NCBI GenBank assembly: GCA_964019425.1
Contig: OZ025789.1
Location: 930,001 to 994,000 of the forward strand
Origin: Flectonema sp. DT1601
Taxonomy: Eukaryota
Direction: 5' to 3'
Length of the DNA: 64,000 bases
Below, in pieces: positions 3,189 to 63,215 of this stretch. The notes under the pieces are model-generated. The model was not told where the DNA came from, made no database searches, and was given only the letters and a program-made list of their open reading frames with translations. Position 1 is the stretch's first letter. Every line of letters starts with the position of its first letter. Made by a program: the position numbers and the translations under genes.

Positions 3189-3542
3189 CTTATTGTGCGG
3201 ATCAATAATAATCCTGAGAAACAATAAAGAATTGAAGCAGGATGGAAGAACACTTATTGTTCAACTGCAGAGTACGCATCCACGTACTGTCAGCAATCGG
3301 CAAAGTAGTAAATGGGTGCAAGACGACAAGCTTCCTCACACGAGGCCGCCTACACAAACTGGTGTCGTGGTGATGCACAAAAAGAATAGATAGCAATCGG
3401 ATTAAGGTAAACAACAATCACGATGTTTGCCGGGGTAGATGAAAAAAGGAAGAAATCAAAAAAAAAAGAAAATGTGTAAGCAAAATAGAGGAAAACTGTA
3501 ACAGAAACAAAAACAACAAACGGTGTTGCCCGCATGAGCAAT

Positions 3543-5135
3543 TCACAACTCCACCTCATCCTCGTTGTCCTCCTGCACACCACCAGAGACATGACTACCA
3601 GAGAGGATGCTACACATGGGAGTTAGAAGCATGTCTGAACTCGCACGCATAGTTGCCGGAATCGTTGTCGGTGAATCCGACAACTCAGCAGCGCTCATCA
3701 TTAATATGTAGTTCGGTTCCTCATCTGAAGCAGCGAACTCAGAACGCAACACTCGCCACAGCCACGGACGCGGACGCAGCAGCAATCCACACATAACACA
3801 TCCAAAAAGATCCGCGACATGAACCGCCCACTCCACCTTGCGGAAGCGGTCCAACGCCGAGGAATTGTCTGCAACGAGCAACACCACGGGAAACGATGAA
3901 ACGTGAAGCAACAGCAAAACACCCCATCCCAGAAAGAATCCTCTCGCTTCCGAATGAGCTACTAATTGTCGCCACACATTACGACAGAAGTAACAGGCAA
4001 TCGGAAGTGAGAGACATCCCACAGCGATAGCAGGAGGTGTTTGATACTCGCTGGCAGTCAAATCATCACTTCGCATTATGTACATCCAAATGAAGAGCAC
4101 CAGGAGAACAACTCCACACCCACTAATTAGTTTGCAGTCCACAGATGACATCCCTCCAAACGATTCTCCGAGGACTCCAAACCCAGTCGAGAAGTTGCAC
4201 ACCAACTGCATCAGCATCACCCGAGCAACCAACCCCGCCCCGTAGGCATTCGCTTTCCCGTGTCCTGTATTCGCAATGCTGACGTATGCGAATAGCTTCT
4301 GAACCCACTCAACAAGGAAAAGCATCAAAACCACGAGGAACCATTTCACAACTGCCGGGGTCACTCCTCGTTGCCTTCGATCCCAAACTGCGAACGCCAC
4401 GAAGACGAACACCAAAATGACAAACAGCGGGACTGCGATGATGTTCAGTTCGAGGATTCCCTGCTCCTCCAGACTGAACTCCCTCCGCCACCATCCTCCT
4501 TTGTTTATGAGGTGTAAGTGGATCGTCACTGCCTCGTCGTTGGTACCGTTGCAGTTCGTCACCGTGAAGTACCACCTCCGAGGTGCTACTCGCTGGTGGC
4601 AGGGGAACTTGAAGGGATTGGATGCGAACCCTTCACACGGAGACACCGTGCAATTCGGACGCATTGGTCTGGTTAGTGAGTAGTATTGACCGAGTGAAGT
4701 AGGGTTGTCTTCCTCACCGCGTATAAGTCCGTGGTAGGTGTGATCTATTAATCCCATGGGATACGTTACAATTAAGGGACTGTCCGGCTCAAGCTTAATT
4801 ACATTTCTGATAATCAGCTGTCGATAGTACGTAATCATTCTACACAAGTGGAATGGATTTTTAATGAATGGGAGCGATGCTTGAACGGAACTCCAACTTT
4901 CAACTTCATCCGAATAGACAACGAAAGTGTAGTTCTCAACCTTCCAGCTGTCTTCAGAGTCTACCCACATCTCACCCCTCGGGGCCAATCCTTCTTCTCC
5001 GAGTGCGCCATCAACAGTATCGAATAAGAAGGTTCCGAGAATATTCCTCATCCCACTCACTTCGATATCATATCGCCGACCTTCAGAAATGATTGGAATC
5101 CACGTCAACCACAATACCCATACTAAGGTGTGCAT
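3543..5135 (-). CDS. GPR180/TMEM145-like (GOST-type) 7TM protein, cassette copy 1
   Basis: 530-aa ORF; signal peptide; luminal domain ending PRRWYFTVTNC...IHLHLINKGGWWRREFSLEEQGI, the motif typical of GPR180/TMEM145; then about 7 hydrophobic helices. Acceptor ttccttcag abuts the ATG. Confidence 0.75.
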   Translation of the reverse strand: MHTLVWVLWLTWIPIISEGRRYDIEVSGMRNILGTFLFDTVDGALGEEGLAPRGEMWVDSEDSWKVENYTFVVYSDEVESWSSVQASLPFIKNPFHLCRMITYYRQLIIRNVIKLEPDSPLIVTYPMGLIDHTYHGLIRGEEDNPTSLGQYYSLTRPMRPNCTVSPCEGFASNPFKFPCHQRVAPRRWYFTVTNCNGTNDEAVTIHLHLINKGGWWRREFSLEEQGILELNIIAVPLFVILVFVFVAFAVWDRRQRGVTPAVVKWFLVVLMLFLVEWVQKLFAYVSIANTGHGKANAYGAGLVARVMLMQLVCNFSTGFGVLGESFGGMSSVDCKLISGCGVVLLVLFIWMYIMRSDDLTASEYQTPPAIAVGCLSLPIACYFCRNVWRQLVAHSEARGFFLGWGVLLLLHVSSFPVVLLVADNSSALDRFRKVEWAVHVADLFGCVMCGLLLRPRPWLWRVLRSEFAASDEEPNYILMMSAAELSDSPTTIPATMRASSDMLLTPMCSILSGSHVSGGVQEDNEDEVEL

Positions 5136-5706
5136 CTGAAGGAAGTTTGAAAATAATGTAAATCAACAACACAAATGAATTATTCACATTATTGAATTGA
5201 TATCCGTACTTCACATCTGCGTATTGTAAACGACAATGAAGTCAAAGGAGAGTCTAACTGTTCGGTAATCTAAGACTGTTAAAGGAGAGAGAGATACTCA
5301 TGTCTCATATCTCACTCGTATTGAGGTTTTCATTATTTGTTGTGAAGTACCTGAGTATGGAACATTAATACATTGAGTTCTGTGGTGTACAAACTAATTA
5401 CTACTTTCCTAATCAACGATCATTATTGTGAAGAACTCTGAGATGAATAATAATCACAAGTAACAACAACAAAGAAAGTGTTAACAAAAGAATAGCAATA
5501 AGTACTTGTAATTACCTTCAAATACCACCACAAACTGGGCATAAGAAAGTACTACTTCGGTACTGCAGCAAAGAGAGGAATCATTTGAACAAAAAGGAAG
5601 AAGAACAACTGCGAGATACCAATCATAAAGTATCACAATAACAACCCAGTGAGACATACTATTCACTAGGGAGTCTGTTTAGCAGAAATATCAAAAAAAA
5701 ACAGAA

Positions 5707-7179: not shown

Positions 7180-7537
7180 CTTATTGTACGGATCAATAAT
7201 AATCCTGAGAAACAATAAAGAATTGAAGCAGGATGGAAGAACACTTTATTGTTCGACTGCAGAGTACGCATCCACGTACTTTCAGCAATTGGCAAAATAG
7301 TAAATGAGTGCAAAACGACAAGCTTCCTCACACGAGGCCGCCTACACAAACTGGTGTCGTGGTGATGCACAAAAAGAATAGATAGCAATCGGATTAAGGT
7401 AAACAACAATCACGATGTTTGCCAGGGTAGATGAAAAAAGGAAGAAATCAAAAAAAAAAGGAAATGTGTAAGCAAAATAGAGGAAAACTATAACAGAAAC
7501 AAAAATAACAACAAATGGTGTTGCCCGCATGAGCAAT

Positions 7538-9127: not shown

Positions 9128-9905
9128 CTGAGGGAGAGTAATTTAGAAACACCAGAAATAAACACCCTTGAGGTTGTTAATGTTTGATACTTAGAAACAG
9201 GACAAGTAGGACGCAGTACTTTAAAATAAATTACTGCAAAACCGCAATAGTAGACCACATGATTCAAAGTACGTCCAATACCTGATCAGCAGTAAATAAT
9301 GACCGCAGTACCCTTTTTATTAATACCTGTTGAGAATAGTAATTACAAATAGAAAAAAAACCAATTAAATCAAAAACAACAAATTAAGAGTTGTGACGAG
9401 GTAATCGTCTCAAGAGTATAAATGAAGGAAATCGATGCAAAGCTATATAACACCACATCGAATATACAAAAAAAAAAGAAAAGGGGGGACCGTCTTCTCA
9501 TCCCGAAGAAGCTCTACTGAGAATCATAATTTAATACGGTGAGATGAGAGAATACATATTTATTGATTAAGGACACACACACTCCTCTCATTAGAGTGTA
9601 ACTTAATTCGAAATGTTGATGCACTGCTGATATCCATATGCTATATTTGTACCGAGGAAAAAAAGGGGGAACTAGAATTCCTCATCGGTACAAGGTAGGA
9701 TATTGCAACTACAAAAAATATGATAAAGAAGAAAAGAAAACTACTACTAAAAAGAAAAAAAGAATCGGCAAACTTCACTTTTTTTACTTACTCACTCACA
9801 CTTTTATTTTGCTTGTGTGCGCAACCGGTAGAAAATCCTAATAAAGGAATAGGTTAGTTACGCTGTCACAATTCTCTTTCTACCGAACAATGGGTTTTGT
9901 AGGTA

Positions 9906-9942
<37 letters not shown>

Positions 9943-12450: not shown

Positions 12451-12807
12451 TGTGTGTGTATTCTGGTAATAAATATTTATTAACAATCAACGGAACGTTA
12501 TTAGCATCTCAATAAGTTTATTGTCTAAAGAAGAAGTAATAACTTAATCAACTGTGATCGACATCCTAATAATCATCTATCCTCCACAGCAAGATGGAAT
12601 ACCGTCTAACAAAGAACAGAGTAGGATAGAAACTACAAAACTGGGCAAACTTGTAAAACTGAAATAGTACAAATAACTAACTGAACAGTTGGGGAGGTGA
12701 ATACAAAAACAAGGGGATCCTTCGATACAAAGAAAAGAGACATTAAGAGGAGGAATTTTTTGAGAAAAGAAATCCTCCTCTTCTATCAAAAAAAAAAGAA
12801 AACTCAT

Positions 12808-14321
12808 TTAGTCCTCAGAGTTTATTGTTGTGTTTGGAGTTGCGCTGGCAACCTGGTTTTGGTTGTTTGTTTTCAGTCACGTCTTGGCGTTCTGTCACAG
12901 AATGATATAAAATAAATGCATACCTTAAGTCCACATCGTAGCAGGCATTGCGCAACTTGCTTCGCTGATGCTCGTTTTAGAACATTTTCAAACAGAGTCA
13001 GTTGATCATCAAGAGACGCACTCGTAAAGTCAGTCGAGGAATTACCCCCTGAGAGGATATTTGAAGAGGTGGCAGTGCTGGTTGGACGCTTTCTAGATTT
13101 GGACTTCTTCGTAGCAGCAGTGTACCCCCTGAGATATGCATCGTCTGTGATTGGTTTTAGTTCGGCTACGATGCGATTGTGAAAGGATTTCTTATTCTTC
13201 TCGAAGGTGCTTCTCAATCCCGACAGCAGCTGCACTAATTTCCAGTCGGCCATCGATTCACAATATTGGACATGAGCTCTGCACTCCTCAAGTATTATAT
13301 CTTTCCTCGAACTCATCGCTTCTGAATCGAGCTGTTTCAGTTTGCTTTGCTTTGCAACTTGAATCACAGCTCGGCATCTTTCCTCACTCTTGTTAAGTTC
13401 GATCCCGGATACAGACATATTTTTCAACGATGTATTTTCCGCTTTAAGCATGCTAATGGTAGATTTTGCTTCTCGGAGTGAGGCTGCAAGCTCACGTTGA
13501 TTTTTTTCAGACATTTCGATAGCGGAGTCGAAACCGTTGAGAAGGTTCTGTTCCACAGAACTAGTAGTGAAGTGTCGGAGTTGGTCCTGAGTGTTAGTGA
13601 GTTCTGTTCTGAGATCTGTGATGGTAGCTGACCTTTGTTTATCATCAATTTTACATTCTTCAAGTTCTCGTTGAAGTAGTTGAATGTGTTCGTATTGCTG
13701 TTTTATTTTTGAGACATGACCTTCTGTGATAACTTTATTACTCGCATTCTCATTACTATCAGCCCTGTTCGTCTCATCACGTATTCTAAATTGAGTCTGA
13801 AGTTCATCATTCTGTTGTTGATAAGATGAAATAGACCTAGCACGAGCTTTTAATAATGCGTCCTTTGCGATGACTGTTTGAGTTTGTTTTCGAAGTTCCG
13901 ATAGAAGAGATGTATTTTGTGATGTCAGTGATTGGATTTGCTTTTTGTAATTCGATGATTCGGTTCTTTGAAGTGATACCTGTTGTCTGATTGTTGAGAG
14001 GTCTATTTTAGGAATGTGATTACCTCCTCTGAATGTTAGAATAGTATCTTCCATATCAGATACTTGCTGTAGGAGTTCATCTCTCTCACGTTGAATTATT
14101 CTCACGAGTTCGCTTAGCTCTTCAACTGTTGCTCTTAGTTTTGAATTATCGAAGTATTGAACTTCCAATTCCATTCCTCCAGACATCATTAATCTGTCTC
14201 CAGATATTACTGACTTCGAAGTAGTACTTCGAGGGGATCCACCACCACCACCACCACTGCTACCAACTGATCTACTTGCTGGTGTTAATGTCAAAGGTAA
14301 CACATTCTCAGCTCCATTCAT
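12808..14321 (-). CDS. Coiled-coil protein; one predicted intron 12853-12923
   Basis: Long heptad-rich ORF. Donor AAG|GTATGC and acceptor aaacaaccaaaaccag| give in-frame last exon VASATPNTTINSED*. Confidence 0.7.
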
Positions 14322-14955
14322 TTATACTTAGCGACGAGAAGAGTGCATTTGTTGAGGATTGTTGAATGCCTGGAGGGGAAAGGTAAAAATAAATAATTAA
14401 AATAAAACAAAAACATAACTACCGACGTCAAAGATACGAGTGAAACTTCTTGTTTCTCGGTAACATAGAAACATTTCACTGAATGAAAATACGAAACAAA
14501 AGAGGACCCGTGCAGTGGTACCTGCTGATCTTCAGCTCACCAACTGCAACCGACGCGAAGATATCACGTATCAGGTGAGAGGTTGCTTTTTGATTTTTAA
14601 AAAAAAATTAAAAAAAAAAATCAAATTGCTTTTTCGAATTGTAACAATAATATATATGAGGAACAGATAGACAAAAAGAAACAAAACCGGAAAAAAAAAA
14701 AGAATTTTTTTTTTATTATTATTATTATGATTTATCTGACAAAAAAAAAAAAAAAAAAAAAAATAAGAAAATCCCCCCTCTCGTGAAATTTTAATAAAAG
14801 AAGCAATTCTCCGCTCTAGTAAAAGAGAGGCCAATTTTGGCTTTTTTTTTTTTTTTGACTACAATTTAGTGTCGATCAAAGTGGAATATTGCACATCTTC
14901 CTAAGAAGAAGAAGACGTAAAGAAACTCAGTCATTAAGTGTTTGAAGGGAAAGTG

Positions 14956-17079
14956 CTATTTCATGTCTGGTGCTGTCTGCGGCTGCGTCTGCGGCTGCGT
15001 CTGCGGCTGCGTCTGCGGCTGCGTCTGCGGCTGCGTCTGCGGCTGCGTCTGCGGCTGCGTCTGCGGCTGCGTCTGCGGCTGCGTCTGCGGCTGCGTCTGC
15101 GGCTGCGTCTGCGGCTGCGTCTGCGTCTGCGGCTGCGGCTGCGTCTGCGGCTGCGGCTGCGTCTGCGGCTGCGTCTGCGGCTGCGGCTGCGGCTGCGGCT
15201 GCGGCTGCGGCTGCGGCTGCGGCTGCGGCTGCGGCTGCGGCTGCGTCTGCGTCTGCGGCTGCGGTTGCAGCTGCGTCTTGTAGGAAGAGCTCGTGTACGG
15301 ATCTTCCTCAAACTGTTCCTTTCTAAAAACAAAGAAATACGACACAGCAGCTATAATAATAATAGCACAAACACAACCCAACACAATACCAGCAATTGTT
15401 CCAGCGCTGATGTCATCGTCCTCAGGGATGATGGGTGCTGGAGTAGCAGAACAAACCCCACCAGGACCATAGACGTATCCAGGTAAGCACTCCAATGCCC
15501 TGCAAGTATTAGAGCCCTTGAATCCAACAGTAATTAACACACCTGACTTATAAGCGCATCCGTATCCAGAAGCTTCTACTGCACCCACCAGGTACGTCGC
15601 CGATCTGTTGATGTACAACCTACCAGGACCATCAATAATTCTGCTCTCAAGATTTGCAAAGTTTGGATTAAATGCAGTTGCGACAGTCGCTGTAGCGAGT
15701 ACCGCTACTTGGACATTGTAGCTGTTTGTTTGTTTTTATGTACTAATATGTGAGTGTGTGTACACTTGCAATGCACTTCAGATATTGTAAAGGAAGTATT
15801 CAATTAAACTATTACAACAATCATGAGACGGTACTAAATTGGAACACACATGTTGCATTAACCCCCCCGGAATATCTGTTCTAAATCCGATATAAAAACA
15901 ATACGAAAACAGTACATACCTAGTAGTAGTCCCACTCACTGTTTCACAAAATTGAAATATTCTCACCTCACTAAAAAGGTTCCCAACGAGCGCTAAGAAC
16001 TCCGCCTTGAATGCCGCGGCTGTGCCATCTGTGACGTCGCAAATTACATCAAGAAATACCAACGACAGAATATATACTTGTTCTGTCAATCCTGTTATTG
16101 TTATAATGTTTAATGACTTGGTAATAACACATTCTATTAATAAACAACACTGACACACACCATTAACTATCTGTCCCTCCTCAGTGTTGAAGCAGCTGCT
16201 AAAAGTTGACGAAGCAGTCTGAGACACGGTTGTACCAACGTAGTTTTTATATATTGAGCCGGTCGTGCAACGACATGTTGCAGACTGATCACTGCGTAGG
16301 CAAGTAGCTTTTCGGTCTCCGTGTCTTCTGCAGTTGTCGTTGACGTTGCAAATTCGGAGTGTTGATGCATCTTGTATGCCCTGAGTACAAGCACCAATTG
16401 AATTAAAACCAAAACCAGGACTACAAATAATATCAGTACACATCATCAATGGACCTGATTTGAGAACTTCACGAAATCGAGCATTCGCAGTCGAAGGACA
16501 CCACAGTGAACTCGACCTCAAAAATGACAATCTGGTATAGCCAACCATCCCTCCAGCAAGGGGTGGTATTTCATTACTATTTATAGCATCACTGACAGCA
16601 GTTGGAAACAACAACAAACTGGTGTTAAAAATTCCTTTTAAAGTCACATTTAACACCATCGATGAATAGATACCTCCACTAATACAAGAATGTCTTATTG
16701 ATTTGATTTGTGGGCTGAGTTGGGACTTAGAAAACGACCAATACGAAGCCGTAACATCACCAATACCTTCACAACGTATGTTATTTGTGTAGAGAGACAT
16801 TACTAGCGATAGAGGTTTTAGTGTGTCAAAGTTCGTGGTATCCATCCGTGGGTAGCACGTCTTTATACTTTGTAAACCGTTAGAAGAGACATAGAAATCA
16901 AAATTTTCGCTGCATGAACACCATGACCTCTCTCCTTGGATTTTGCAAGATGCTCTTGAATCTCCAAAAATTTGACAATCTTCATTTATAAAACAGGTTG
17001 AGATATCACTCGGTGTGTAATCCGCAGTCGATAATAAAACTATATATAATATCCCACACAAAACATATTTATATTTCAT
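14956..17079 (-). CDS. Cys-rich type I membrane protein with PQ/TQ-repeat cytoplasmic tail; introns 16092-16160 and 15722-15919
   Basis: Signal peptide MKYKYVLCGILYIVLLS; two related Cys modules (C..N.DC...GD..A.C...C.C). Splicing joins the ORFs 15778-17133 and 14956-15618 in frame (TTTS|YNVQV). TM segment IAGIVLGCVCAIIIIAAVSYFFVF. Confidence 0.8.
14975..15278. repeat. GC-rich coding minisatellite: 12-bp (CAGACGCAGCCG) and 6-bp (CAGCCG) units encoding (QTQP)n/(QP)n
   Basis: Directly visible as ctgcggctgcgt repeats on the + strand. Confidence 0.95.
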
Positions 17080-17280
17080 TTTTTTTTTGTGTTGAGGAAC
17101 TGACAATGTGAAATAGCTAACACACAACAACATCCATTCCCATCTTCAACAAATATGAAAATAAATGCGATTTAAACAGAACGACTAAAACAATAAGATT
17201 TCTAAACAAATAAGTGTAACTGATATGGTATAATTTATTTTTTTTTTTCGGACGTTTTCATTCAAAAGAAGATGAGGATC

Positions 17281-20131
17281 TCACACTTTATAAAGACAAG
17301 TTCTAAGTGAGTATCCTCTCTGAGTTAATAATTTTCTCATTTTCGCGATGCAATCAGATTTCGTGAATAACATAAAACAGACAACGTAGTCAACGTCCTC
17401 GTGATCTCTGTACACCGACATCGTCATTTTTGAATTATGAGCATCAAGCTGTGTTGGTTGCCAGATGTGATTAGAAAAATGACCAGGATAGTCCCACAAA
17501 GCACCTATCTTATCACCGCATGGGTTTAAGACTTGCCAACAACGTCCAGTTGGTTTTCGACTGCATATCGACATGGGTGCTGCGAAATCAAACTCATTGT
17601 GAGATAGTCGATGGTATAAATAATCAAATGAATCAGACATAGCGATGTGTTCTAACAGCGCACCCTCGTTGTTTAAATCATAGATGGTGCAGTTTAGGAA
17701 TTTATGTGTCTTTTTACTGTTAGAGTTCGAAACGGGTACAATGAACCCTGATCTGCATTGGATGGTAGCGGACAGTACTGGTCCACAGTAAACATCTAGA
17801 GTTCTGCATGTCTTGTGTTCAATCATTGTAATTTGTTCTCTTGTTGCTGCGATGTCTGGTAAGATGTCATCTATACCTGTTGGTTGTATTATTTTATATA
17901 AAAAAGAAATTGGCTTTTATCTTAAATAACTATACAGAAAAACAGTAATATAACAACTGTGATGTGTTTTTTTGTTTGTGTCACGAAACCGACTTAAAAC
18001 TGATAAAGCTAAAGGAGGTTTACGTGTGCTGCCCAACATTCTTTTAATACTTGTTAAATGCAAAAAAGAACCATACTGTTCGTTTTCAAAAATAGAAGCA
18101 AACACATACCAATATCAGCTTTCTTACCTTCTTGTTTAGCAACAGTAACGAGAACAGATAACTCTTCAGCTGGTCTCATAGGATCTATCGATACTTTTCC
18201 AGTTTCATCAGTCGTGGTGCAAAAACATCGAATTAAGATGCGAAGAAATGATTTGAAATCAATGCATGATTCAGTTCTAACTCCAAGGTTTTGATCATTC
18301 TTACCAGACCCTGATGCACCTGATAATGGAGGTAACACCTGTTGTTGCATTACTTCTTGAAAAAATGGTTCATCACTCACTTGAGTACCATCAGCCATGT
18401 ATAGTTTTTCAACAATTCCATAATCAGTTTTAAACTTCCTCCATTTATCAAGAACTAAGAATCGAGTGTTTCTTCGATCTTTGTAACAAACTAACGATGA
18501 GAATAGTTTTTGTAATTTTGTGATGAGAGTGTCGTCGATGTACCAAACTGGACAGGTATCCCTAACAGTAAATAACTGACCAGGAACGGTCTCAGAATAT
18601 CTAACTCGATCATTACTAACATCAACTAAGAAGGTTGAGTACATTCCAATTTCTACGGTCCATAAATGAGTTTGAGTATCGTATCTGATTACAACATTTA
18701 TTTGTGAAGGTTCGACTGATGGAAGAGTCAGAGCCACTCTTTTCGGTTTCACAGTATGAGCTCGTAACGCAAACGGTGGTATTATCTTGTTTATGTCTGA
18801 GAATCTAACAAGAACGTCTCTCTTGGTACAGAAATTAGATCCATCGATAGTGACGTCGATGTCACCAGAGCCTGGAGATATGTATGGACGACAAGCAGCA
18901 TGTTCACTGTTATTTCTTAGTATCGGAACACCTTTTGGAACCCAGTCACAGTCTGATGATAATTCCCTTGAAAATATTTTTTGATAAAACGGAGAAAAAG
19001 ATCTAAACAAAGACTCAACTCTACTGGTAATAGTCGGTGACTCAACCATGTCAGTATGGACCACCATGGAAACCCTTAACATAACATCAATAAATGTCTG
19101 TTTATCAAGAAGAATATCCTGATAAGTCATCTCTCCTAAGCCTCCAGATTGAGATCCTCTCCGAGAAATATTAGCATAGGTACATTCTTGCATTTCAAGA
19201 GGTGTGTTTGGATTCACAATTATTTTTCCAAAACACGCTACTTGAAGAATTTTTGATATTTGAACAGAATTAATCAATTTTGGGTAAAGACCGAATTCTT
19301 TACAAAAATCAATGAACTCATCGACTTCGACATTCGCATCCAATACTTTTAAAACATCATAACTAAGTGTTTTATTGCCATGTTGATCCAATGATTTATA
19401 TCGTTGGAATATTCGTTCAATGGGAGCATCGTAGATGCAGAGTAGTCGATCAATGTCGAGGGATTGTAAAAGGTCATCACCAGGTTGACATCCATCATTT
19501 TGATTTCTTCTAATCGACTCGTCAACCCATTTGCTTATGTGTGTTTCAAATAATTCTTGTAGAGCATGTCGGTGTTTACCATCCAGATGCGGATGTTTTT
19601 GAAATGCTGTTTTTTTTTTTTTGTTGTTGAGTTTTTTTTAGTTTTTTTAAAATATTGGATATAATAACAAAAAAAAAAAAACCTACCAATATGAACCAAT
19701 ACTTTAGTAAAGCGAACGATGTCTAAGTTTCCTTCAGAATCAACAGACCAATCTACCAAAGTCATGTATCGGGATTGCTCTTTATCAGTTGTTATTAGCT
19801 TGCATTGTTTCGCCCAGTGTTGAAATAATTTTCTATCCATTTTCTTTTTTTCTAAATAATCACCATGATCCAAAGCATGTGAGAATAACACCATTATAAC
19901 CGAAAGCATTCCTTCCCTACCATCAGATAAGATTAGCTCAATGCTAGTTTTCTCCATGTCACCTTCTTTGTAAAGGTTATTTATCATTTCACTAATTAAT
20001 TTATTTGCGACTGAAGCAGCTGATTGCCTTCTAGCACCTCCTTCCTTTCGTACCCATGAAGCTGGAGATCCCATTCTTCGAGTACTGCTATTACGTCGCA
20101 CTGGGATACTCGCAGAGCTCATGCGACGCAT
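17281..20131 (-). CDS. Large multidomain protein with EF-hand/p25alpha-like helical modules and an IPT/TIG-like domain; introns 19607-19686 and 17877-18109
   Basis: Two GT-AG introns join three ORFs in frame (VHI|AFQKH; DI|GIDDILP). PYISPGSGDIDVTIDGSNF resembles IPT/TIG. Domain calls are tentative. Confidence 0.7.
17901..18066. repeat. Dispersed ~165-bp repeat, copy A (inside intron 17877-18109)
   Basis: Near-identical to 47354-47525 (gaaattggcttt...tcacgaaaccgacttaaaactga...aaaggaggtttacgtg...aatacttgttaaatgc). Confidence 0.9.
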
Positions 20132-20281
20132 TTTTTTAAATTTATTTTATCTGAAATTTAGTCATCGCTTTTAAGAAAGAAGGGGAAATAATTTTTTTTT
20201 TTCATCACTGAAGATGCGAATAATCGATGTGCAGGTTGGCACAGAAGTACCACCGCAATATTTTTATATAAGTGAGAATAA

Positions 20282-21148: not shown

Positions 21149-22083
21149 GGCATAAAACCTGATAAAGGAAAGTATAACATGATCTCATCACATAATAATT
21201 GTGGAATAGCTGCAGTCAGACAACTGCTAACGAACGACTACTCGAACACACACGATGCTCGTGGATACTGTCCTTGCTACCGTGTATCGAGTATTACTGT
21301 TTAATATAACAAAAGGATGACTATGAGTGAGGATAGTCATTCCTATTGTCACAAGTACGTTTTTAACTAATTCTACAGCGACACTGCAATGCAGGATAGT
21401 AGATCAGCTGAGGACGGAAGTTGATTATAACGAAAACGAATATTCCTCTTTAAAGTGTTTACAGACACTAACTGTGTTGTGTCACCAATTCCCACCCAAA
21501 AGATCGAAAGGTGGAGGGGGCAGCAATACGGAAAAAAAAAAAAAAAAACGGGGTGGATAATTGTAACATCGTAATAGAAGAAAATCCAAACCACCAAAAC
21601 ACAAAAACAGGAGGACGAAAACTTTGCTCTGCACCCCAACAGAAAACAAGATTCCACTCGCATAAAACAAAACGTATGATAACTTCAATGGGTACATCAC
21701 ACTAACGGCATTGGCACATCGCCTGCCTAACAGTAATGATTAGTTGGCCCATAAAAAGATTCTCAATCCCAAGAACACATCCAAAAGTATTATTTCATTA
21801 GATCCACAGAAAGACATGTTATGCAGCATTCAAAACAGAGCTCAACCCAATCACTCTCTAAAGGAGATCAGCGTTCACGTACGATGAGTGACTCTAATTG
21901 CTACCTCAAGTGTAATGTAGTAGTAGCGCACAGCAATCGATAAAAAGGATCTTTAAAAAACAAAAGAACTTATCATTTGGTAGAAGCCGATAAACAGGTA
22001 CCCCAATTACTTCTGTGAAGGTTTTGTTTTCATTAGAAACAAACAGGAACGTGACGTGCGAGTTTAGTATATTTTAACAATGT

Positions 22084-22911: not shown

Positions 22912-23267
22912 TGTTTGTAAGATTCTTATGCTGTGATAATGATTAAAATAATAAAGAAGATCGCGGTCATACTTATCTTCAGTTTCTTCATCTTCTGAAG
23001 CTGCGAAACAATTAGTTTATAAAAAAGAACGTAAAACCCAAACTCCATAATTGGACTCTATGAAATAATTAAAATAGCAACAAACTTTTATTTTTTTTCA
23101 ATGAAAAAAAAAAAAAAAAGATTTTTTTAAAAAATATATAATAAAACCCTAACGGTCAATTGACACAATAACAAAAATGTCTTCCTAGTCTACAGAAAAC
23201 AGATAACAGAATAAAAAAAAAAGATACAGGTAAAGTTGAACAGAAGCTACAAGGTGAGAACAACTAT

Positions 23268-42039: not shown

Positions 42040-43171
42040 TATGCAGTGCTCTGGGGATCTGGGAGGGACCTGGAAAAGATGTTATTATAATCAGTTCTTC
42101 TTATAAACAGATGATCACTATCACTACTAATTGTAATGGTCGTAAAGTATAACCTGATACTGGAGGAGGGGGTGAAAAAATAATTTTTATCCAAATCAGT
42201 ACATCATCTTAAACCAAAAGTACTCAAACAGACCAAAACTCAAATCATCAGCGACCGCTGATGCTTATAATTGCCTCTGAGATGGGAAGGGGAGGGCAAT
42301 CGGATCACTCTTACTCGAAATCACAACCCAAAAAGAGTAAGGAACTAAGTAGTGGATGTGATACGTAAAATATTGCTTTCAGACAGTAGTTCCACTACAG
42401 GAGGAGAATAAAGAAAGTAAAAAACTCAATACTACTTGTAGAAAAAGGAAACCAGGAAATGCTATTCCCAATTATTCAAAACGCTAATTACTAACCCAGG
42501 TAGAAAAAACAAAAAGAGCAAAAAAAAAAAGCAAACTAATGCCCTCCCAAACAAAACAAACAGATTCTCTCCCCAGAGTGTAACGCCTACCTTGTTAGAA
42601 TAAAGGAAGACAGAACAATTGCAATGAAAGACTCATATTATGATCAATAATGTCTTTTCTACTATTGGTTTAAACACTACTAATAATTGTGTGGTGGTAT
42701 TAATTGCAAGTTTTTTTCATTCATAGCTAAAGGCTGATTCATTATTAAAGTCTGTTTTTGTTGTTGTTTTTTTGTTTTTGGTTTTTTCCCCGTTCTCCTT
42801 TTTTTTTTTTCCAGTCCTACGTATTAGAAGGAGAAAATCAAAACTGAGTAAATTATAAACAACGAAGGGGGAAAAAAAAAGAAAGAAAAAGAGAGAAAAG
42901 CAAGAAACACAGCAGGGTGCCTACTGAGTTTCTCATCCCAGTCAAGGGTGGCATGACAATCTCTCTTTGTTTGTGGTGTTTTTGTGCTTTTTTTTGTTTT
43001 TTATTTTTTTTTTTTTTTATCTCACATGGAAGAATATTATAAAAGAAAAAACCAATCTCCCATTAAAAGCAACAAAAAAAATGAAAAAAAAAAAAAAAAA
43101 TTTAAATTACAGAAAATCTACAACGGAAAGGAATACACTCTACCACTAATAACAGGCTGATATGCCCTTTG

Positions 43172-43783: not shown

Positions 43784-44014
43784 TTATATTATTATGGGGA
43801 GGGTGACTGAAATGTTAGATATTTATAAAAGGATGATGGGGAAAGAAAACAAAACAAATGCCGAGTATTCATCTGCTGTCATTTTCTGTTGATTTTTGTG
43901 TATTTGAGTCACCTGCAGAAATAGTAATCACCAAGTCTGTTGCACAAATTACTCCAAAAAAAAAACAAGAATTTAATTAGCATTCTTAGACAGTGCCACC
44001 AATCTGCTTTGCTA

Positions 44015-44548: not shown

Positions 44549-44930
44549 GTGGGCATCTAGCTCTGAAAAATGAACGAATTAGTGAACCTATTTTTGATTG
44601 AGGGCAGCAACACAAATGAACTCACTTTTATTGGGGTCATCTCTTCCTGTAGTATAAACAATGAGAACATTAAAATACGTAATAAAAAGAGCTTTACGCT
44701 ATTCTACACCCCAACCTTGACTTCCAAGGCAGGGTTTACAGATATTCTAAATTAGATAACAAAAAGTAAAAGTACACATCTCTGGCAAGTTTAGTACGTA
44801 AAGAAAGAAAGGTTCCGTAGAGTTAACACAAATCTATATCCGCAATATGCAGATTGGTTCTGTTTATAATAATAAACGTTCCGGGGAAAAACGGAAATCT
44901 TACATTGAGACAAAAGAAAAAGTCGCAATG

Positions 44931-46238: not shown

Positions 46239-47353
46239 TGCTGTTGAAACAAATGGTTTGAGGAAGTTATCAATTTCAGTATAAATTTAACACCAGAGTG
46301 TAATGGTCATCCTCTCTCATCAACATCATGTGTAAGGCTGGGTTAATACATGGAGTTAAGGAACAGCAATGAAAAAATAAACAATAGAAATAGAATACTA
46401 CATAATCTAATTAGAAAAAAAAGCTACAATTATTTTGATAAGAATCTATGAGGCGCTTGCAGTAGGGGTACGTTGTGTGTATTCTAATGAAAAAAAAAAA
46501 GGAAAGCAACAAAAAAAAAGAAGAAGAAAAAAAGTCCCCTACTTTCTGTGATACAATTCGCAGCTTAAACCAATTTTTTTTTTTTTTGCCTTACGGCGGT
46601 TTTTTTTTGAAGGGCAAAACTTTGACAATGTAGAAACAGTTACAACTTTTAGGTATTAAAAACAAAATTAATATCAAAAGTACTTGACTGAAAAAAATAT
46701 ATTTGAGGGAAGAACAAAAAAAAAAAAAAGCACATCCGAAATAAAATCACAATGTGAGTTTTTTTTTTTTTCTTTGCATTCCAAAGCAGCTGTCATCACA
46801 TATGTATGAGAAGACGCTATGAAATACCCTTTTTTAACGACATATCCCGAAACTATAATCTACAGATAGAGACTGCCACAAGAATATTATGGTGTTGTTA
46901 TTGTTGTTGTTGTTTTTTTTCTTTCCTGTTGTTTTTTTCATTAAGAGAATACGAAAAAAAAAGAAGAACAGAGGGAGAAATAAAAAGAAAAAAATAATCT
47001 TCCCTCTTAAGACTAGACAAGTTAGTGAGTGAATCCAACAGACCACCACCGAATATCGGTTTGGTTGACTCTCAAATAGAGATCTTCGAGTCATCCCCAA
47101 TAACTGCAGTAAGAGTTTTAAACGCAATAATCCTCAAAAAGATAGAGAGTTTCTACTATGAAGGAACAAAAAAAAAGCCATTCCAATGCAAGGAACAGAA
47201 AGGAATTAGAATAAGCGACTTTGAGCCTTCGAAAAAAAGGAGTTGAGGCTAAAGTTGAAATAAGGAGTCTTTTCAATGTTCCGCACTTTCTTATTTTATG
47301 TTTTAACATAAACAGCATAAGTGCTAATAAAAAAGAAGTTTTGGAAGAAGAAA

Positions 47354-48055: not shown

Positions 48056-48149
48056 TTTAATAACAAAAGAGAATGTTGCCCACCTATTAATTTCAATTCT
48101 CATGAAGTGGTCCACAATATTTATTATTGCATAAGCAGTATTTGTAATT

Positions 48150-49186: not shown

Positions 49187-51546
49187 CTAAATATGCCTCG
49201 AGAGAATCTCCATCCGGTCGGCAGGCATCGCGAATGATGGCCGTTGCTGTTTTTTTGTTACTTTTTTTTTTTTTTTTTTTTAAAATTGATAAAACATCAA
49301 ACAAAACAAAAACAAAAAAAACAAACCGATCTCGGAGTTGTCCTACTCGGCCGACCAGGGAAATCAGTCGGAGAAAGAAGAGCTGTATTTGCTCGTTCCC
49401 TTCGATGTGGTTTAATAGAACTAGTAGGAGCCTGTTCAAGTTGACCAGATTTGAATTCATTTTCTAAACTAACAAGTGCAGCACTGAGGTCAGCATCACG
49501 TATTCTACGAGTTGGAGTTTTTGCTCCATCTCTGTTTGATTTTGGTGGTACAAGATCACGTAGTTCAGAATCCAAACCATACTCTGCACTTGCTCGACGC
49601 TTTTTTCCAGATGATGATCGACGACGAGGTGGTTTCTTAGCATCAACCACCGAGGATCTACGAGAACTTCTCCTCGATGATGGAGCAGAATGACTAACAG
49701 GAAGAGTACCAGAAGATCTTCTTCTCCCCGACAAGTTGCTAACCATTGAGTTGACCCTCTCTCTTGGTTGTAATTTATCAAATCCTGGAATGGGTTTTAT
49801 GTGTGTTTGGTTAACAATAGTTCCCATTTCAATATTTTCAGTTTCCGGATAATTATTTGATTTTTGTACTTCAGGTAACTTATTAACTACGTCTTTATGT
49901 GTTGGTGTCACCCTCTGTGATGGTGGTTGAGATGAATTTGGTATCGATCCAACAGGTTCTATTTGAATAACATTGTGAGAAACTCTTTCATCAGAACTCC
50001 CTTGAAGTAGAGTTGATAGTAGTTTTGGTTCATTATTACAGTCGTTTGTCGTCTTCGGTGTCTTTGTCACATAACAAATAGCAGCTGCCATAAACACACA
50101 TAAAAATGCACATCCCACAGCCACTCCAATAATAGTTTCTGTAGGTAATTGACTATCTTTTGATCCAGAATTCATAACCTCACAGTAGTCACCGTACCAG
50201 TTTGGTTGGCAGCTGCAGATGCAGCCTCCGTCAATAATGGTAGCACTGACTGCGTGATTAGTACAATTATCTACTTTTGTACAAACAAGACCACCATTTG
50301 GAGTACTAAGACAGCTTCCCTTTAAACAAACAGTGTTGTGGTTTGGAATAGATTTACACCTACAGAAACCATCACTAGCAAGACTGGATTGTGAATCACA
50401 AGACTGATGAAGAAGCGGAATGATATCACACTTCGCAGTAGTTGCAGCACTGAGTCTCTCGCATATCGAAGACGGGGCTCCTGGACATGCAGTTCCTTCT
50501 GCTACAGACTTAACTGTTTTTGATTCTCCTGCATAGCAGTTTGATGACTTCACTTGATACTCCATGGCTTTACCTTTACACTCAGATGGCATGTATTGTT
50601 CAGGTTGACTTACTTTCTTACAATATGTTGCTGCGCTGACACATAAATCAGCCTCTTCACAAGTGAGGTGAGAATAAGATGTGAATTCACTAGTTAGTTG
50701 GTGTTCATCCCAAGGATGACCACCAACACAGCACGTTGGTGATGTTGAGTTTCCGCAGGTGTTTGTGACGGTACCTCGTCGAATGCATGAGCATGACTCT
50801 GTTGAGCACTTAGTGTTGATTTCACTTGTAATTATAGGATCAGTTTGAGTTCTTTGGTATTCCCAACCACAGTCTACACTTCCCTCAGGGATGACGGCAT
50901 GGGCGGCACTTAAGTCTCTACAAATGTCATTCTGATCACAGGTATTGTTGTCCTTATCGACTGTAACTTTAGTACTGCAGGAGTCAACAACTTTTCCAAC
51001 TTGTTTTTTAACACAATTCCACAAGGTGTCACAGGTTGCAAGTCCCTTTGTATACTTAACCCAAGCTTTAATATCACAAGGATTGTTACTGCAGCGTTCT
51101 ATTTGATCACAGGATGCCTGAGAATATTTTAGTACTTCTGGACGGTCAACTAATTTTGAGTTATCTTCAAAAAGAGTATCTGGTGAAGTAGAAGACTTAC
51201 ACAGTCCTGTTGATGCATCATACGTTGCTGGACTACCAGCACAGATACAAACTTCAAGAGAGCATTTGTCTGCTTCTGCTCTAAGTTCTGCAGGGTCGGG
51301 TGTCCATGATGACGGTGCCAGTGTTAAGCTAGACATACACCTTGACATTAATGGTTCACAACCCTCTGCGAAATTAATACTTAATTCATTAGCACCCCTC
51401 GAGTTACGTTGCTGTCCTCTTTGCAGTACCATACTCCTGAATAACTCTTCTAGTACGTCTGCGTTACCAGCACTTGTAACAATGCATAGCCAAGCAAGCA
51501 TCAGTATCTGAAGCAGTGCAGTCGGCATGTTGGTTGAGTTGTTCAT
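49187..51546 (-). CDS. Cys-rich type I membrane protein with a membrane-proximal EGF-like domain; intron 49247-49326
   Basis: Signal peptide (MPTALLQILMLAWLCIVTSA), many Cys, EGF signature CICSCQPNWYGDYCE, TM IIGVAVGCAFLCVFMAAAICYV, Arg/Ser-rich tail; spliced end PRS|QRPSF...RHI*. Confidence 0.8.
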
Positions 51547-51790
51547 TCTCGTGAACTGATGTGAAAGAATAACATTATACACGTCAAGGAATATTTTTGT
51601 CGTAAAGTTCAACTGAAAAAAAAAGGAGGTCCACTTCATAATGTCGCTGTGAAGGAATAAAGGATTAAGAATTATAAAAACAAATTGACCGACAATAAAA
51701 AAAAAAAATAACAAATATAAGAATATAAGAATATAAGAATAAAAAGTTTGTGTAAATAATAAACATCTGACCACTGAATCATGAAAAGGA

Positions 51791-53794: not shown

Positions 53795-54279
53795 ATCTGG
53801 TATTGAGCAGTCAAGCTAAGAGTAGCTAATAGCACAGTCCATGTGAGTCTGTGAAGGAAATAGTTCATAAACCTTGAAATATTCTGAAAACAAATTAACC
53901 ATCGCACCGTGAAAAATTAGTATACCACAATAACAAGAAAAACAACAAAAAAAAAAAAACTAAAATCACAAGCAGATCAAATCCAACCAAAAAAAAAAAT
54001 TTAATTTTTTCGGTAAAATCGTTACAGCTTAAAAGAAATTCACGCTTTTTTTTAACTTTTTTTTTTTTTTCAAATATTTTTTTTTATAGTGTTCCATGAG
54101 AGTAATAAGAAATTAAAAAGTCCGATACAAGGTTAAAAACAAGTTTAAAAATAAAATGACAAAAACAACCAAAAAAAACAAACACGCGTATGCAGACTAG
54201 CTGCAGGGAAAGCTTCCTTTTTATAGATGCTTCAATAGTACTAAAACGAAAAGGTTTATCGAACGAAAAATGAAATCAT

Positions 54280-55710: not shown

Positions 55711-56513
55711 TTTTATAGCAACTGTTAGGGGGAATGAATATCACAGAGCGATACAACAACTCAAAATATAACAATCGCGTGGTGAAGCAACCCTAAGAAC
55801 AACGATCACATTCCGATGGCTTCCACAGTGATCGACTAGCCGAGTTACGCTGCGGTAGCCATCTGCTTCCTGAAGTGAAGGTGAAAATAATATAAATCAG
55901 TAGAATATTCGCAACCGTTATCACGGTCGAAAGTAAGACAGAAACCCGAAAAACGGGAGAACACTGTCCCTTTTGTTTTGTTTTGTTTTACACGTCGGTA
56001 ACGAGGTTAATTGTAACAAAAAGAAAAATAAAATTAAAATAAAACAAAAAAAAAAAGGCAAGCTGAAAGCACAAGCAGCTCGCGAACAACAAGAAAATAA
56101 AATGCAGCACGCGGATTTCACCCATTCATAAGTTTTTTTTTTTTTTTTTTTTTTTTTCCCGGAAAACCGAAATCCAGAATGTCTCTTCCAACACTCCTTT
56201 TTTTTTTTTTTTCAAGGTTTTTTTAATTATTTAGTTCTGCCTCTTATTTCAATCAAATCAGCACATGTACGCTATAAGAATCAGTAAATGCGGTAAAAAT
56301 TGCTTATCCCAAAGGAGGACAAAATACTCACTACTCCAGTTACCAACAGCTATGAGAAATAATCAGTAAACGAGTGCAATTAATTAACGAAAAGAGAAAC
56401 CAAAAAGTGTGGCAATTACTTTATAAAAAATTAAAGAGGAACTGCAGACACGCATGGCAAAGAAATAATAGAAAATTAAAAAAACGTTTTTTTCTTTTTT
56501 TTATGTCAACAAA

Positions 56514-57944: not shown

Positions 57945-58255
57945 TTTTATAGCAACTGTTGGGGGGGATGAATATCACAGAGCGATACAATTCACAAACC
58001 TCAATCACTAAATAGAACCTCAACGCCAACCTCTCATATTATTAATAAATTAAACAAGTCCTAAAAAACAAGTAGTAATAATTACAAAACCACACCACGA
58101 GATAGTCTTGACGCAGTCTCTGAACGGCGTCTATGAATAGAATCCCCAGAGCTAGAAGGGAATTATTTTATTTTATTTTTTAAAAAGACAGTTCCAAGCT
58201 ATTATGAAAAAAAAAATAAATAATAATAATAATAATCTAAAGAAGGCAGCAGATC

Positions 58256-59266: not shown

Positions 59267-60844
59267 ATTGATTGCCTGAGAGATAATAAAAAAGAAAAAT
59301 AATATCGATTGATATTCCACATTAAAATACGTTCTGTATGACTCATACGATGAAAACATTATTGTAAGCTGCAAGGTGTATTGTTACATATTTATGAATA
59401 ATGCTTTCAGTCAACACGGAGGCGGAAAAAACAATCGCACCCGCAGCACCAAAAAAGATTTGTAGTACCTTGTTCTGTGAGACAGACAGAAAAGATGTAC
59501 GTTTGCATTTTTCACGTAGGATGGGGATGAGTAATATAGGAATTCAAGACACGCAAGACGATAAAATGCACCAATCCAACAAAAAAAAAAAAAAACTCGG
59601 AGAAATTTCAAAAAGAACGGGAAAAAAAAATGGAGAAAAAAAAAATGATCCAAGATCTATGTGATGAGGCTAATCCACAAAAGAATAGATGGAAAAACTT
59701 TTCATTTCATTCTTTTTTTTTTTTTTTCCTTATTTTTTATTTATTTTTTTTTTTTTTTTGCTTTTCCTTAAACACTCATCTCATCCGTTGCTGTATCTTA
59801 AATTTTATTTTTTAAAAAATATAATAATAAAACGCGCATATCGTAACTTCAATTACCCCCTTTTTTTTTTTTTTTTTTTTCCTTTTTTGTTGTTGCACCG
59901 ACGAAGTCGAGAAGAAACTATTCAGATTAAGAGCCATTATTTATTATGTCATGGTATCTACTTCAGATTTGCCAACAAAATGTAAGGCTTACCTGAATGA
60001 ATGGCTCTTTTTTTATAAACTAACGAGGTACACTTGACAACCAAGACACAGGCTCTATTCGCGTTGTGAGAAAAAAAAAAGCTACTCTTTTAATTTTTTT
60101 TTCTTTTTTAATAAGCAGCTATGATGTTTTTTTTTTTTTTTTTTTTCCCTCATTTTAATTTTCAATTCTATTTTTTTTTTTTTTTTTTTTTTTTTTCCCT
60201 CTGGCCGATCAGCAGGTTTCATTGAAGACAATCAATGAAGGCTTATTAGTACGGTAAAGATAAGATAGTTACACAAGAGTCTCGCTACTTGAAGAAATGA
60301 AGGCTGACCTGTCCACACAATATTCTTAGATTCGGGTGTTTCGAGTGGGTTGTCCCTTCTCATTCCTTTTTTTGATTCCACGCACTCGCGCTGTCTGTGT
60401 GTTTTTTTTGGGTTTTCTGAAAAGCATAAGAAATCAATAGGCAAGACTGCCAGATGAAAAGGGAAAGGGGAAAAAAAAACAAAAAGGTCGGTGGATTTCA
60501 TTAATTGGCGGCAGCTTCTGCAATTTTAACTAATGAACAATTGCTAGTGATTACCAACTGCGGCAGAGAATAATACGCACAATCAACCCAATGACAGCGA
60601 TTCTCTCGTTTTTGCGAGCAGATTTTTTGATACGGCTCCCTTGACTGATTCTAAAAATTGTTTTTTTTTTTTTTTCCTGATGTACGGACTACGAACCAAA
60701 ATTCAAAAAAAAAAAAAAAAAAAGAATAGCTGTATGCGGTGAGTAGACTATCCTTCTCACCAGAGAAATCGAACAGCGTAAAGTCTTCTACACAAGAAGG
60801 CCATCTACGATTAATCAATACTTGCTCTGATGGTGTTATTTACC

Positions 60845-62872
60845 TTACTTGCAAAGAGCAGACTTGGGACCGGCATATGAAAATCCATTAAATTTACCAC
60901 CAGAAGTGTCTTTTGTTCCAGGCTCGTCATCTCCACCTGGGAGGTCAGTTGCTTGTTTAGTGAATTCACTGTCAAAATATTTCGTATCTGACTCACCCTT
61001 ATGAATCGACGGTATAAACTCTGGCTTGTAATTCCTTTTATATAATTCTTGAAAGTCAATACCACTGAAGAACGGATGGCTTTTTAATTTTTCGATGTCA
61101 CACATTCTCTGTTTTGGATCTCTATCAAGAAGCTTTGTTAAAATATCTCTAAGAGGGGCTGACACAAAGGATGGGAACTCAAGAGGTTTATTTAATATCA
61201 ACTGATACATCTGACTAACATTCTGTGTGTAGAATGGTGGAATACCCACCACCATTTCATATAAGAATATCCCCAAACTCCACCAGTCAACTGCTTGGGT
61301 ATGACCTTGTTTCATAACCAATTCTGGAGCCATATACTCTGGTGTACCACAGAAGGTATAAGTCGTTCCCTTAACGTTAGTTTTAGCTAAACCAAAGTCT
61401 GTAAGCATTACGTGACCTTCGCCATCGAGTACCTGTTTTTTTGTTTTGTTTAATAAAATGTTCTTTAAAAAGATCGATTCCTCACAAATACAATCACATA
61501 CCAAGTTCTCCGGCTTCAGATCTCGGTATATAACACCAAGCGAATGGAGATGAGACAACGCTAGAGAGATTTCAGCTGTGTAGAAACGAGCACGGCTCTG
61601 TTTGTTTGTTTGTTTGTTTTTTTCCCGTTCTTTTTCGTACAAGTGTTAATACTTTGCTTCAACCAACAACATACTTCACTAAACCTCTTACTGCGTTGCA
61701 GGTGATAGAATAGCTCTCCTCCAGAGAGGAAGTCGAGGATGAAGATAAGTTGTTTTTTAGTCTGTTTGTTTATTTAATTTTTCTACCCTATAATACATAT
61801 CCAACAAAGATGACTCACTCTTACATACCTGAAATGCGTAGTGGAGGTTAACGACGAATGGATGGTTGACCATTTCTAATATCATCTTTTCAGCATTAGT
61901 GTGAGCAACCATTTTGTTTTGAATGATTTGATCTTTATTGAGGACCTTCATAGCATACACTTGTGCTGATTCACGATGTTTAACTTTCATTACCTTACCA
62001 AAGCTTCCGATACCCACAACGCAAACCAAGTCGAAGTCTTTGAGGCCGAGAGTCTTTCGGCCGTCAGTTCCTTCGGCAGCCTTGTCAGCTTGTTTTGAAT
62101 AGTATTGTTGTGCCATGTCAGCGTCTTCTACACCTTCTAGCTCACCGATACCCTTGTTTCCTGGAAGCTCACCGCCGCTTGTTACTGCTTCAAGGTACTT
62201 CCACCATCTCTGTTTTTCCTTTTCACAATCATCAGGTTTCGCATCATCACCCACAGCCGCTGTCAATACATATGTCCTCGGTAAGCTGGGACCCATTAAG
62301 CAGAATGCATATCTGTACATCGTACAGTCAACTACTTTAGTATTTTTTAGTGGAATTGTTCCAAGTCTTTTCCCACCTTGTTTTTCATGATAGTGAAGGT
62401 TGTCACCTCTTATTTCAAACCAACGAGTTTTAAAAGGGTCTTTAAAAGCAACGGTCCGGGCACCCAATTTTCTCAGGTAGCCACCGCCACCGAAGAGACC
62501 GAGCAGTGCCCTGAACTCCGATGCAGAATTAAGTCCGTTACAATGCTTAACTTGTGCTAGGAAATCCTCTAATTGTCTTCTTCTCTCTTCAACGAATTTT
62601 GGATCAAACCTTCCAAATGTCTTCTTTGGTGGAGGTTCTGGTAAGTGTGGCAACCCTAACTCTTTACTCTTCTTTCGTAGTGCCTTAAACGCTTCTTCAA
62701 ATTCTCTAAACCTCCTCCAACAACTAGCTAACTCAGACCCACTCCTCTCTTCTCTTATACTTACTTTATAAACCATAAAGTCACTCTTCTTAGTAGGGTC
62801 AGTTACATGAACAGTCATAGAATTCCAATCAGGGTCGGAGAGATCAGAGGGAGGCCCATCCCCCATAGTCAT
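60845..62872 (-). CDS. AGC Ser/Thr kinase with PX and PH domains (Akt/SGK-like); introns 61762-61828, 61598-61674, 61433-61501
   Basis: PX (WRRFREF...PEPPPKK...[11 protein letters not shown]), PH (GYLRKLG...FKTRWF...RWWKYL), kinase ([28 protein letters not shown]) and hydrophobic motif FNGFSY. Three GT-AG introns restore one frame. Confidence 0.92.
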
Positions 62873-63215
62873 TTAATATATCTCCCACCTGTTCCTGAAT
62901 GAAAGTAAGTAAAATTATTCCGAGATGAAAACTATCACAAGAGAATCTGCAATAAGTCACTTGAATACAGCAAATGGAATACGAAGCTTTGCAATTCAAA
63001 GAAGAAAGAGTAAAAATTAGAGGGATGGTGCTAGTATGTCCACAACTAACAATAAACTTCGCCATCGGGTTGTTACTCATTATCGGATGCCGACTTCCAT
63101 GGCCACCGTCGTCTAGATGAACCGACAGGATCTGATAAGCGATCACTGGATTCTTTGTCGATTGAGCAACTCCGCGTTCATGCCGAAATGGAGGACATCG
63201 GTAGAACTGAAGTAA

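Follow-up and report, generated by a model that had tools for sequence, protein, structure and literature searches.

In this study, we analyzed a 64,000-nt stretch of contig OZ025789.1 from Flectonema sp. DT1601 (the window, always meaning this whole stretch) for the two kinds of 3′ splice site that it appears to hold: the AGs just upstream of start codons, which we call first acceptors and which an initial annotation had read as putative sites at which trans-splicing adds a spliced leader (SL), and the acceptors of introns inside coding regions. Twenty-eight gene models, assembled from open reading frames (ORFs), Pfam and homologues, make up a long array in which unrelated genes follow each other head to tail, all 28 of them on the minus strand; the five ATG-initiated ORFs of at least 100 amino acids on the plus strand are each overlapped for 76 to 100% by minus-strand genes. 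From stop codon to next acceptor the gap is at most 350 nt in 13 of 27 cases and 131 nt at its shortest.

Judged by its protein matches, the host is a diplonemid. The PX-PH-kinase exon at 62872-61832 has as its best named relatives D. japonicum (81% identity), D. papillatum (80%), D. ambulator (79%) and Rhynchopus euleeides (74%), and another gene matches only itself, S. specki and D. papillatum; the window species differs from every species matched. A metagenome scan with the kinase alignment gave at least two loci among 590 pattern matches, one (L001) starting at the coding region (first 300 nt) and so carrying no 5′ context, the other (L002) being a distant kinase with 23% identity. In D. 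papillatum, genes lie in one-strand clusters of 5 to 120 and essentially all mRNAs bear an SL (PMC10161547). Given a diplonemid host and the SL trans-splicing documented for the group, the AGs ahead of the genes are likely ordinary SL acceptors.

First acceptors ahead of the genes

All 12 motifs that the initial annotation had listed on the minus strand are present, and they sit 0 to 48 nt 5′ of a modelled ATG. Nine end at the base originally given, and three were off by 1 or 2 nt, the terminal G lying at 3214 (not 3212), 55722 and 62895. The putative SL acceptor at 3214..3228 (minus strand, as are all sites and introns below unless stated) stands 25 nt before the ATG at 3188 with 13 pyrimidines and one A in the 15 nt counted; its tandem copy at 7205..7219, before the ATG at 7179, is not an independent count. 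A GPR180/TMEM145-like gene has its putative SL acceptor at 5136..5144, abutting the ATG, and that of the second GPR180-like copy, at 9128..9138, is again a pyrimidine run plus CAG, then ATG. Further putative SL acceptors lie at 14370..14387 (48 nt before the ATG at 14321, with a 6-codon upstream ORF between and a weak donor look-alike), at 21159..21172 (10 nt upstream of an isochorismatase-domain gene), at 28051..28066 (a TAG, 8 nt upstream of an LRR gene), at 37295..37304 (10 nt before the ATG at 37284) and at 55722..55738 (11 nt upstream of serine carboxypeptidase copy a, with no donor carrying G at +5 within 150 nt); carboxypeptidase copy b has the same acceptor at 57956..57973. Several genes have AGs in tandem, so that the exact acceptor site is uncertain: the candidates are 42070 and 42051 for a metallophosphoesterase gene (42051..42080), 62895 and 62889 for the PX-PH-kinase gene, whose start was checked by homology (62889..62908), and 44563 and 44557 before the ATG at 44548 (44557..44574). 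This last pair is ambiguous, with a GTGAG look-alike upstream, and the same applies to the acceptor 19 nt upstream of proC (22931..22948; GTATG look-alike at 22972) and to that 9 nt upstream of a NIF/FCP1-type phosphatase gene (59276..59289; GTATG look-alike at 59348).

Outside that list, first acceptors were found at 1401..1418 (11 pyrimidines and 3 A of 15), 12463..12480 (8 and 7, tied with 43807 as the most A-rich), 17100..17117 (10 and 3; start codon uncertain), 20151..20168 (7 and 5; 131 nt after the upstream stop), 23926..23943 (8 and 6), 32562..32579 (12 and 3), 43807..43824 (8 and 7), 46241..46258 (9 and 5), 51556..51573 (11 and 3) and 53797..53814 (9 and 4), as well as ahead of a peptidase M54 gene with a homology-checked start (34245..34262; 10 and 5). 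The YAG nearest to the PWI-domain gene (30777..30794; 7 and 5) has no adjacent pyrimidine tract, the start of this gene being supported by homologues, and the YAG nearest to the ATG at 40927 (40933..40950) has a poor tract of 6 pyrimidines, 4 A and 5 G. Degenerate tandem repeats with long A runs occupy 30895-31393, upstream of the PWI-domain gene. The choice of some start codons was guided by what we take to be signal-peptide and myristoylation features.

To compare these sites with their surroundings, we defined the first acceptor as the nearest upstream YAG, counted bases at −18 to −4 (15 nt), and used 25 independent starts (the 28 models minus the three tandem copies starting at 7179, 9127 and 57944) against 179 intergenic ATGs and 351 intergenic YAGs. 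As a set, the first acceptors differ from the control ATGs in several respects: the YAG is nearer to the ATG (median 11 nt versus 23 nt; p = 0.017) and more often a CAG (21 of 25 versus 50%; p = 0.0016), the counted stretch is richer in pyrimidines (10.1 versus 8.0 of 15; p = 5e-4) and poorer in G (1.1 versus 2.7; p = 3e-6), and the AG-free stretch upstream is longer (median 36 nt versus 14 nt; p = 0.005). A YAG at most 30 nt away with at least 10 pyrimidines precedes 14 of the 25 starts and 28 of the 179 controls (p = 3e-5). The signal holds for the set and is weak in individual genes, 16 of 25 first acceptors reaching 10 pyrimidines, and their A content is close to background (3.8 versus 4.3; p = 0.57). 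The 12 sites first listed form the pyrimidine-rich end of the distribution (10 to 14 of 15), whereas the 14 unlisted starts average 9.0 pyrimidines, no different from the 8.15 of intergenic YAGs (p = 0.22); these 14 are nonetheless G-poor (p = 0.007) and fully apart from the intron acceptors described below (p = 1e-5). Noncoding DNA is 38% T and 29% A, and the pyrimidine effect is moderate because the intergenic DNA of this strand is already so T-rich. The first acceptor thus resembles an ordinary 3′ splice site of low strength, G-poor and moderately pyrimidine-rich. A branch point, sought with three patterns, gave no additional signal: one of them, YTRAY, precedes 16 of the 25 first acceptors as against 104 of the 351 intergenic YAGs, but shuffling those same stretches already gives 12.9 (p = 0.14), so that we attribute it to composition.

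Adenine-rich acceptors of the coding introns

Thirteen introns were modelled within coding regions. All 13 run from GT to CAG, with a GTATG donor in nine and G at +5 in every one, and nine are 67 to 90 nt long. Homologues support seven of them. The three junctions of the kinase gene show gap-free alignments with proteins derived from transcripts, which places them exactly (61762..61828, 67 nt, A-rich acceptor; 61598..61674, 77 nt, A/C-rich; 61433..61501, 69 nt, A-rich). Two junctions of the gene at 20131 (19607..19686, 80 nt; 17877..18109, 233 nt) and one of the peptidase M54 gene (33679..33768, 90 nt), all with A-rich acceptors, are backed by one or two homologues each, and both exons flanking the 396-nt intron of the PWI gene (29377..29772, A/C-rich acceptor) match single homologous proteins. 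Of the other six, the predicted intron at 12853..12923 (71 nt, A-rich acceptor) is placed by the restored frame, and those at 16092..16160 (69 nt, in frame), 15722..15919 (198 nt), 25414..26239 (826 nt, in the LRR gene), 32028..32112 (85 nt) and 49247..49326 (80 nt) are model predictions.

The two classes of acceptor do not overlap. Within the 15 nt counted, the first acceptors hold 1 to 7 A and the coding-intron acceptors 8 to 14 (Fisher's p = 2e-10), with 6 to 14 and 1 to 7 pyrimidines, respectively; a count of at least 8 A is found at none of 25 first acceptors, at 13 of 13 cis acceptors and at 32 of 351 intergenic YAGs. Introns end in AACAG in 12 of 13 cases, first acceptors in 4 of 25 and intergenic YAGs in 16 of 351. 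The contrast persists when only the six homology-checked introns of the kinase, 20131 and M54 genes are used (p = 1.5e-4), and nearest-AG and nearest-CAG rules return it with some overlap (1 to 10 and 1 to 11 A, respectively, versus 8 to 14). It is, however, lopsided, the A-tract of the introns being a strong and unusual signal and the tract of the first acceptors a moderate one; the A-tract stands out from noncoding DNA in which T (38%) is commoner than A (29%). Since the unlisted first acceptors are close to background in pyrimidines and A is not depleted at first acceptors generally, the outlier is the intron A-tract; the original description of the two compositions as opposite was right in that the classes separate and overstated in that first acceptors carry a background share of A.

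Could the A-rich end be a structural element rather than a recognition tract? An A/C-rich intron end might pair, as a 3′ arm, with the U/G-rich start of the intron in a stem that joins the splice sites and hides the U-run, and first acceptors, having no partner arm, would then have no A-tract. The base composition would suit such pairing (60% T and 17% G at +7 to +26; 74% A and 13% C at −23 to −4), and end-paired introns occur in other euglenozoans (PMC12621601). Folding of 11 introns (two long ones were skipped) yielded a predicted perfect 17-bp end-to-end stem in one, the intron 19686-19607 (z −3.5); the other 10 have z values from −0.2 to +1.5, with no excess stability. Nor do arms pair more stably with their own partners than with swapped ones (−6.25 versus −6.16 kcal/mol; p = 0.43, and p = 0.74 for a second span of intron positions), and tract accessibility is equal between the two acceptor classes (p = 0.95). 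We therefore regard a stem as quite improbable, noting that the arm-swap and folding tests address partner-specific pairing, not generic U:A pairing. The introns likewise do not resemble the noncanonical end-paired type of euglenozoans, as all are GT-AG and own and swapped arms pair alike (p = 0.43).

Several other sequences resemble these introns or lie within them. An intergenic 69-nt stretch at 42752-42820 has a GTAGG donor and an A-rich CAG, with a pyrimidine-rich CAG 24 nt upstream of the donor; it is possibly an intron of an untranslated region (UTR), and if so it would test whether the A-tract accompanies cis-splicing outside coding regions. A second, similar candidate lies at about 9976-10078. 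A dispersed repeat of ∼175 nt (88% identity) occurs inside the 233-nt intron (17900-18070) and in intergenic DNA (47353-47528) and brings with it an A-rich CAG resembling a cis acceptor. Within the PWI intron, a GC-richer stretch on the minus strand (29480-29720) contains an 80-codon open frame that matches none of the homologues tested and has no Rfam hit.

Trans or cis use of the first acceptors

If the first acceptors belonged to introns of the type seen in coding regions, donors should stand at a matching distance. In the interval 60 to 100 nt upstream, sites of the form G|GTNNG or GTATG accompany 9 of 13 intron acceptors, 1 of 25 first acceptors and 19 of 309 intergenic YAGs, so that first acceptors are overall at the background rate, although long introns could escape this check. 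Tandem duplicates add a second line of evidence. The carboxypeptidase copies become nearly identical only from ∼33 nt upstream of the AG, and therefore keep no shared upstream exon or donor; the two GPR180-like copies (5136 and 9128) align poorly in their upstream DNA, and in both a pyrimidine run and CAG still precede the ATG. Short gaps, background donors and duplicate boundaries thus fit acceptors that have no partner donor. Together with the lineage and the one-strand gene order they agree with the trans-splicing reading of the initial annotation, in which SL use itself is still an inference; by analogy with the relatives, SL addition at the first acceptors is likely.

The alternative is that these AGs are acceptors of cis introns in the 5′-UTR, or chance AGs near starts, with the SL added elsewhere. 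The initial annotation had itself singled out 14370 and 22931 as sites with a plausible donor. This holds for 22931, which has GTATG 42 nt upstream; the donor at 14370 is weak, and the list was incomplete, better look-alikes standing before 59276 (GTATG 73 nt upstream) and 44563 (GTGAG 63 nt upstream). The look-alikes at 22931, 59276 and 44563 speak for cis use, as do the 5′-UTRs of ∼70 nt in D. papillatum (PMC10161547), compared with the median of 11 nt here, and the tandem AGs that blur the exact site in several genes. Yet the donor frequency is that of the background and far below that of the introns, gaps of only 131 to 235 nt leave little room, the duplicated units start just upstream of the AG, and an mRNA spliced from the look-alikes at 22972 or 59348 would retain ATGs that are upstream or out of frame. 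As a general account we therefore consider this alternative very improbable, while for one to three sites such a reading may apply.

Regarding the remaining content of the window, Rfam detects no SL or small nuclear RNA gene in it and matches only one tRNA and one rRNA fragment. The tRNA-Leu(CAA) at 63450-63533 is on the plus strand, opposite to the protein genes and close upstream of the array's first gene, where it could be a transcription-unit boundary by analogy with trypanosomes; a 79-nt inverted repeat (77%) lies nearby at 63555-63773. The rRNA fragment is a degenerate piece of eukaryotic large-subunit (LSU) rRNA inside the gene array (48215-48833, minus strand; 129.9 bits, model positions 24-664), of which a 37-nt piece is seen again at 63245-63281. 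Two recent tandem duplications are present, one of a two-gene unit at 1539-9135 (93%), comprising the GPR180-like gene and a gene for an unknown protein with a hydrophobic N terminus, and one of the serine carboxypeptidase pair at 54281-57990 (99%).

Possible sorting of acceptors between cis- and trans-splicing

The reading we favor, at a probability of about 0.55, is that the first AGs are SL acceptors of a likely polycistronic array and that the A-tract of the introns likely keeps internal acceptors from SL addition. By comparison with relatives, SL addition at the first acceptors would divide a long precursor RNA into mRNAs. Having no donor, such an acceptor would have to recruit the spliceosome alone and so would retain a U2AF-type tract, whereas the paired donor (GTNNG, mostly GTATG) would define a short GT-AG intron, which could dispense with such a tract. 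SL addition in T. brucei is driven by the pyrimidine tract and impaired by purines inserted into it, and the tract also fixes polyadenylation ∼100 nt upstream (PMC9639853, PMC6597758). A pyrimidine tract beside an internal AG would accordingly invite SL addition, and this, if coupled as in trypanosomes, would entail upstream polyadenylation and split the gene; with an A-rich tract, both would be avoided. Such a mechanism implies a one-sided code, with the A-tract as the derived mark and the pyrimidine-leaning tract as the default.

A rival account accepts the SL acceptors and the contrast as real and does without a sorting code, the presence of a nearby donor alone setting cis versus trans use. 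The A-tract would then be a lineage-specific trait of how introns are recognized (through a factor that binds A/C, or by drift once dependence on U2AF had relaxed), and the first acceptors would mostly reflect the T-rich intergenic background. Three of our results point that way: the unlisted starts are no richer in pyrimidines than intergenic YAGs (p = 0.22), first acceptors equal the background in A, and donor presence covaries fully with tract type. The two-signal code proposed initially is confirmed as a difference between two classes and, for the last reason, stays a proposal as regards an instruction carried by the tract. From the literature, trans-splicing in Ciona goes to the first acceptor that is functional and whose donor is weak or missing (PMC11155486), and diplonemids that keep C-rich intron tracts use the SL as well (PMC12621601), which indicates that an A-tract is not required to part the two kinds of splicing. 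Against this account, the first acceptors as a set are richer in pyrimidines, poorer in G and biased to CAG relative to controls, both GPR180-like copies hold their pyrimidine run and CAG despite poorly aligned upstream DNA, and why a shift to A spared the first acceptors is left without explanation. We rate a choice made by the donor alone as rather unlikely, and as less probable than the favored reading of an A-tract that guards internal acceptors.

Those SL-using diplonemids with C-rich introns are one of several points that weigh against this favored reading. The contrast rests on one window (n = 25 and n = 13), and four starts were checked against homologues. Six of the 13 introns rest on a restored frame, and a scan for A/C-rich acceptors had a part in finding them, which is circular; genes that have no homologues could also conceal in-frame introns whose tracts are different. 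The absence of A-tracts at first acceptors is close to what the background would give (0 of 25 versus 9%; p = 0.15), the first acceptors at 30777, 40933 and 20151 have little tract (6 or 7 pyrimidines), and good donor look-alikes precede three others (22931, 44563 and 59276). Finally, several introns contain pyrimidine runs of 7 to 25 nt located 23 to 68 nt upstream of the AG, which fit a simple avoidance of such tracts badly.

Compared with known systems, the window shares with euglenozoan SL arrays (D. papillatum and trypanosomatids; PMC10161547, PMC6597758) its head-to-tail genes and, before starts, an AG that follows a pyrimidine-leaning, G-poor stretch and mostly appears to be without a paired donor. 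It differs from them in combining putative SL acceptors with frequent cis introns of another acceptor type, and from T. brucei, with tracts of 9 to 40 nt (PMC9639853), in the shortness and weakness of its tract (10 of 15 pyrimidines on average). The closest counterpart for the introns is D. japonicum, where A is the main tract base (weakly so in L. lanifica and R. humris) and U2AF1/2 are present (Thakur et al. 2025, PMC12621601): the introns of both have GTATG donors, end in CAG and are dominated by A at the tract position. The species are nevertheless distinct (81% identity in the kinase), and the introns of the window are longer, 9 of 13 measuring 67 to 90 nt versus a median of 41 nt. That paper covers cis introns, and its available main text contains none of the terms spliced leader, SL RNA or outron. 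Like Euglena gracilis (PMC11170887), the window would join cis-splicing with SL trans-splicing, and uses CAG acceptors; in E. gracilis introns and outrons have the same C-rich tract, whereas in the window the A counts of the two classes form separate ranges. Trans acceptors also lean to more U or to longer tracts in Schistosoma, Ciona and flatworms (PMC5832876, PMC11155486, PMC12582326), but these differences are graded and many acceptors are shared, whereas the window shows a difference of kind. The available text of PMC11613528, bioRxiv 10.64898/2026.07.29.740908, PMC2488372 and PMC6053224 describes no such contrast. Our literature search found no case of A-tract cis acceptors set against pyrimidine-tract SL acceptors, with subscription journals outside its coverage and with supplements to PMC10161547 and PMC12621601 that may show SL-acceptor logos. 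SL acceptors in a diplonemid are thus expected and A-rich intron ends are already published (PMC12621601); the clean split of both acceptor classes, in a further species, appears to be undescribed.

How a given AG is assigned to cis-splicing or to SL trans-splicing is an open question in cells that do both, and a species with a clean compositional split makes this choice testable. From the sequences analyzed here, the split between A-tracts and pyrimidine tracts may help the cell to separate cis- from trans-splicing. It would also account for the so far unexplained A-rich intron tract of D. japonicum, in that the requirement for a U2AF-type tract would persist but lie with the SL acceptors. 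Gene finders trained on a single acceptor model would, in such genomes, miscall starts or introns. A stronger version, possible though doubtful, is that in this diplonemid lineage a single spliceosome understands two acceptor languages: an AG would be committed to SL addition by a pyrimidine tract and to cis-splicing by an adenine tract. If true, intron-rich genes could survive inside polycistronic arrays, and the decision between cis and trans would be written at the 3′ splice site, where it could be switched by swapping 15 bases.

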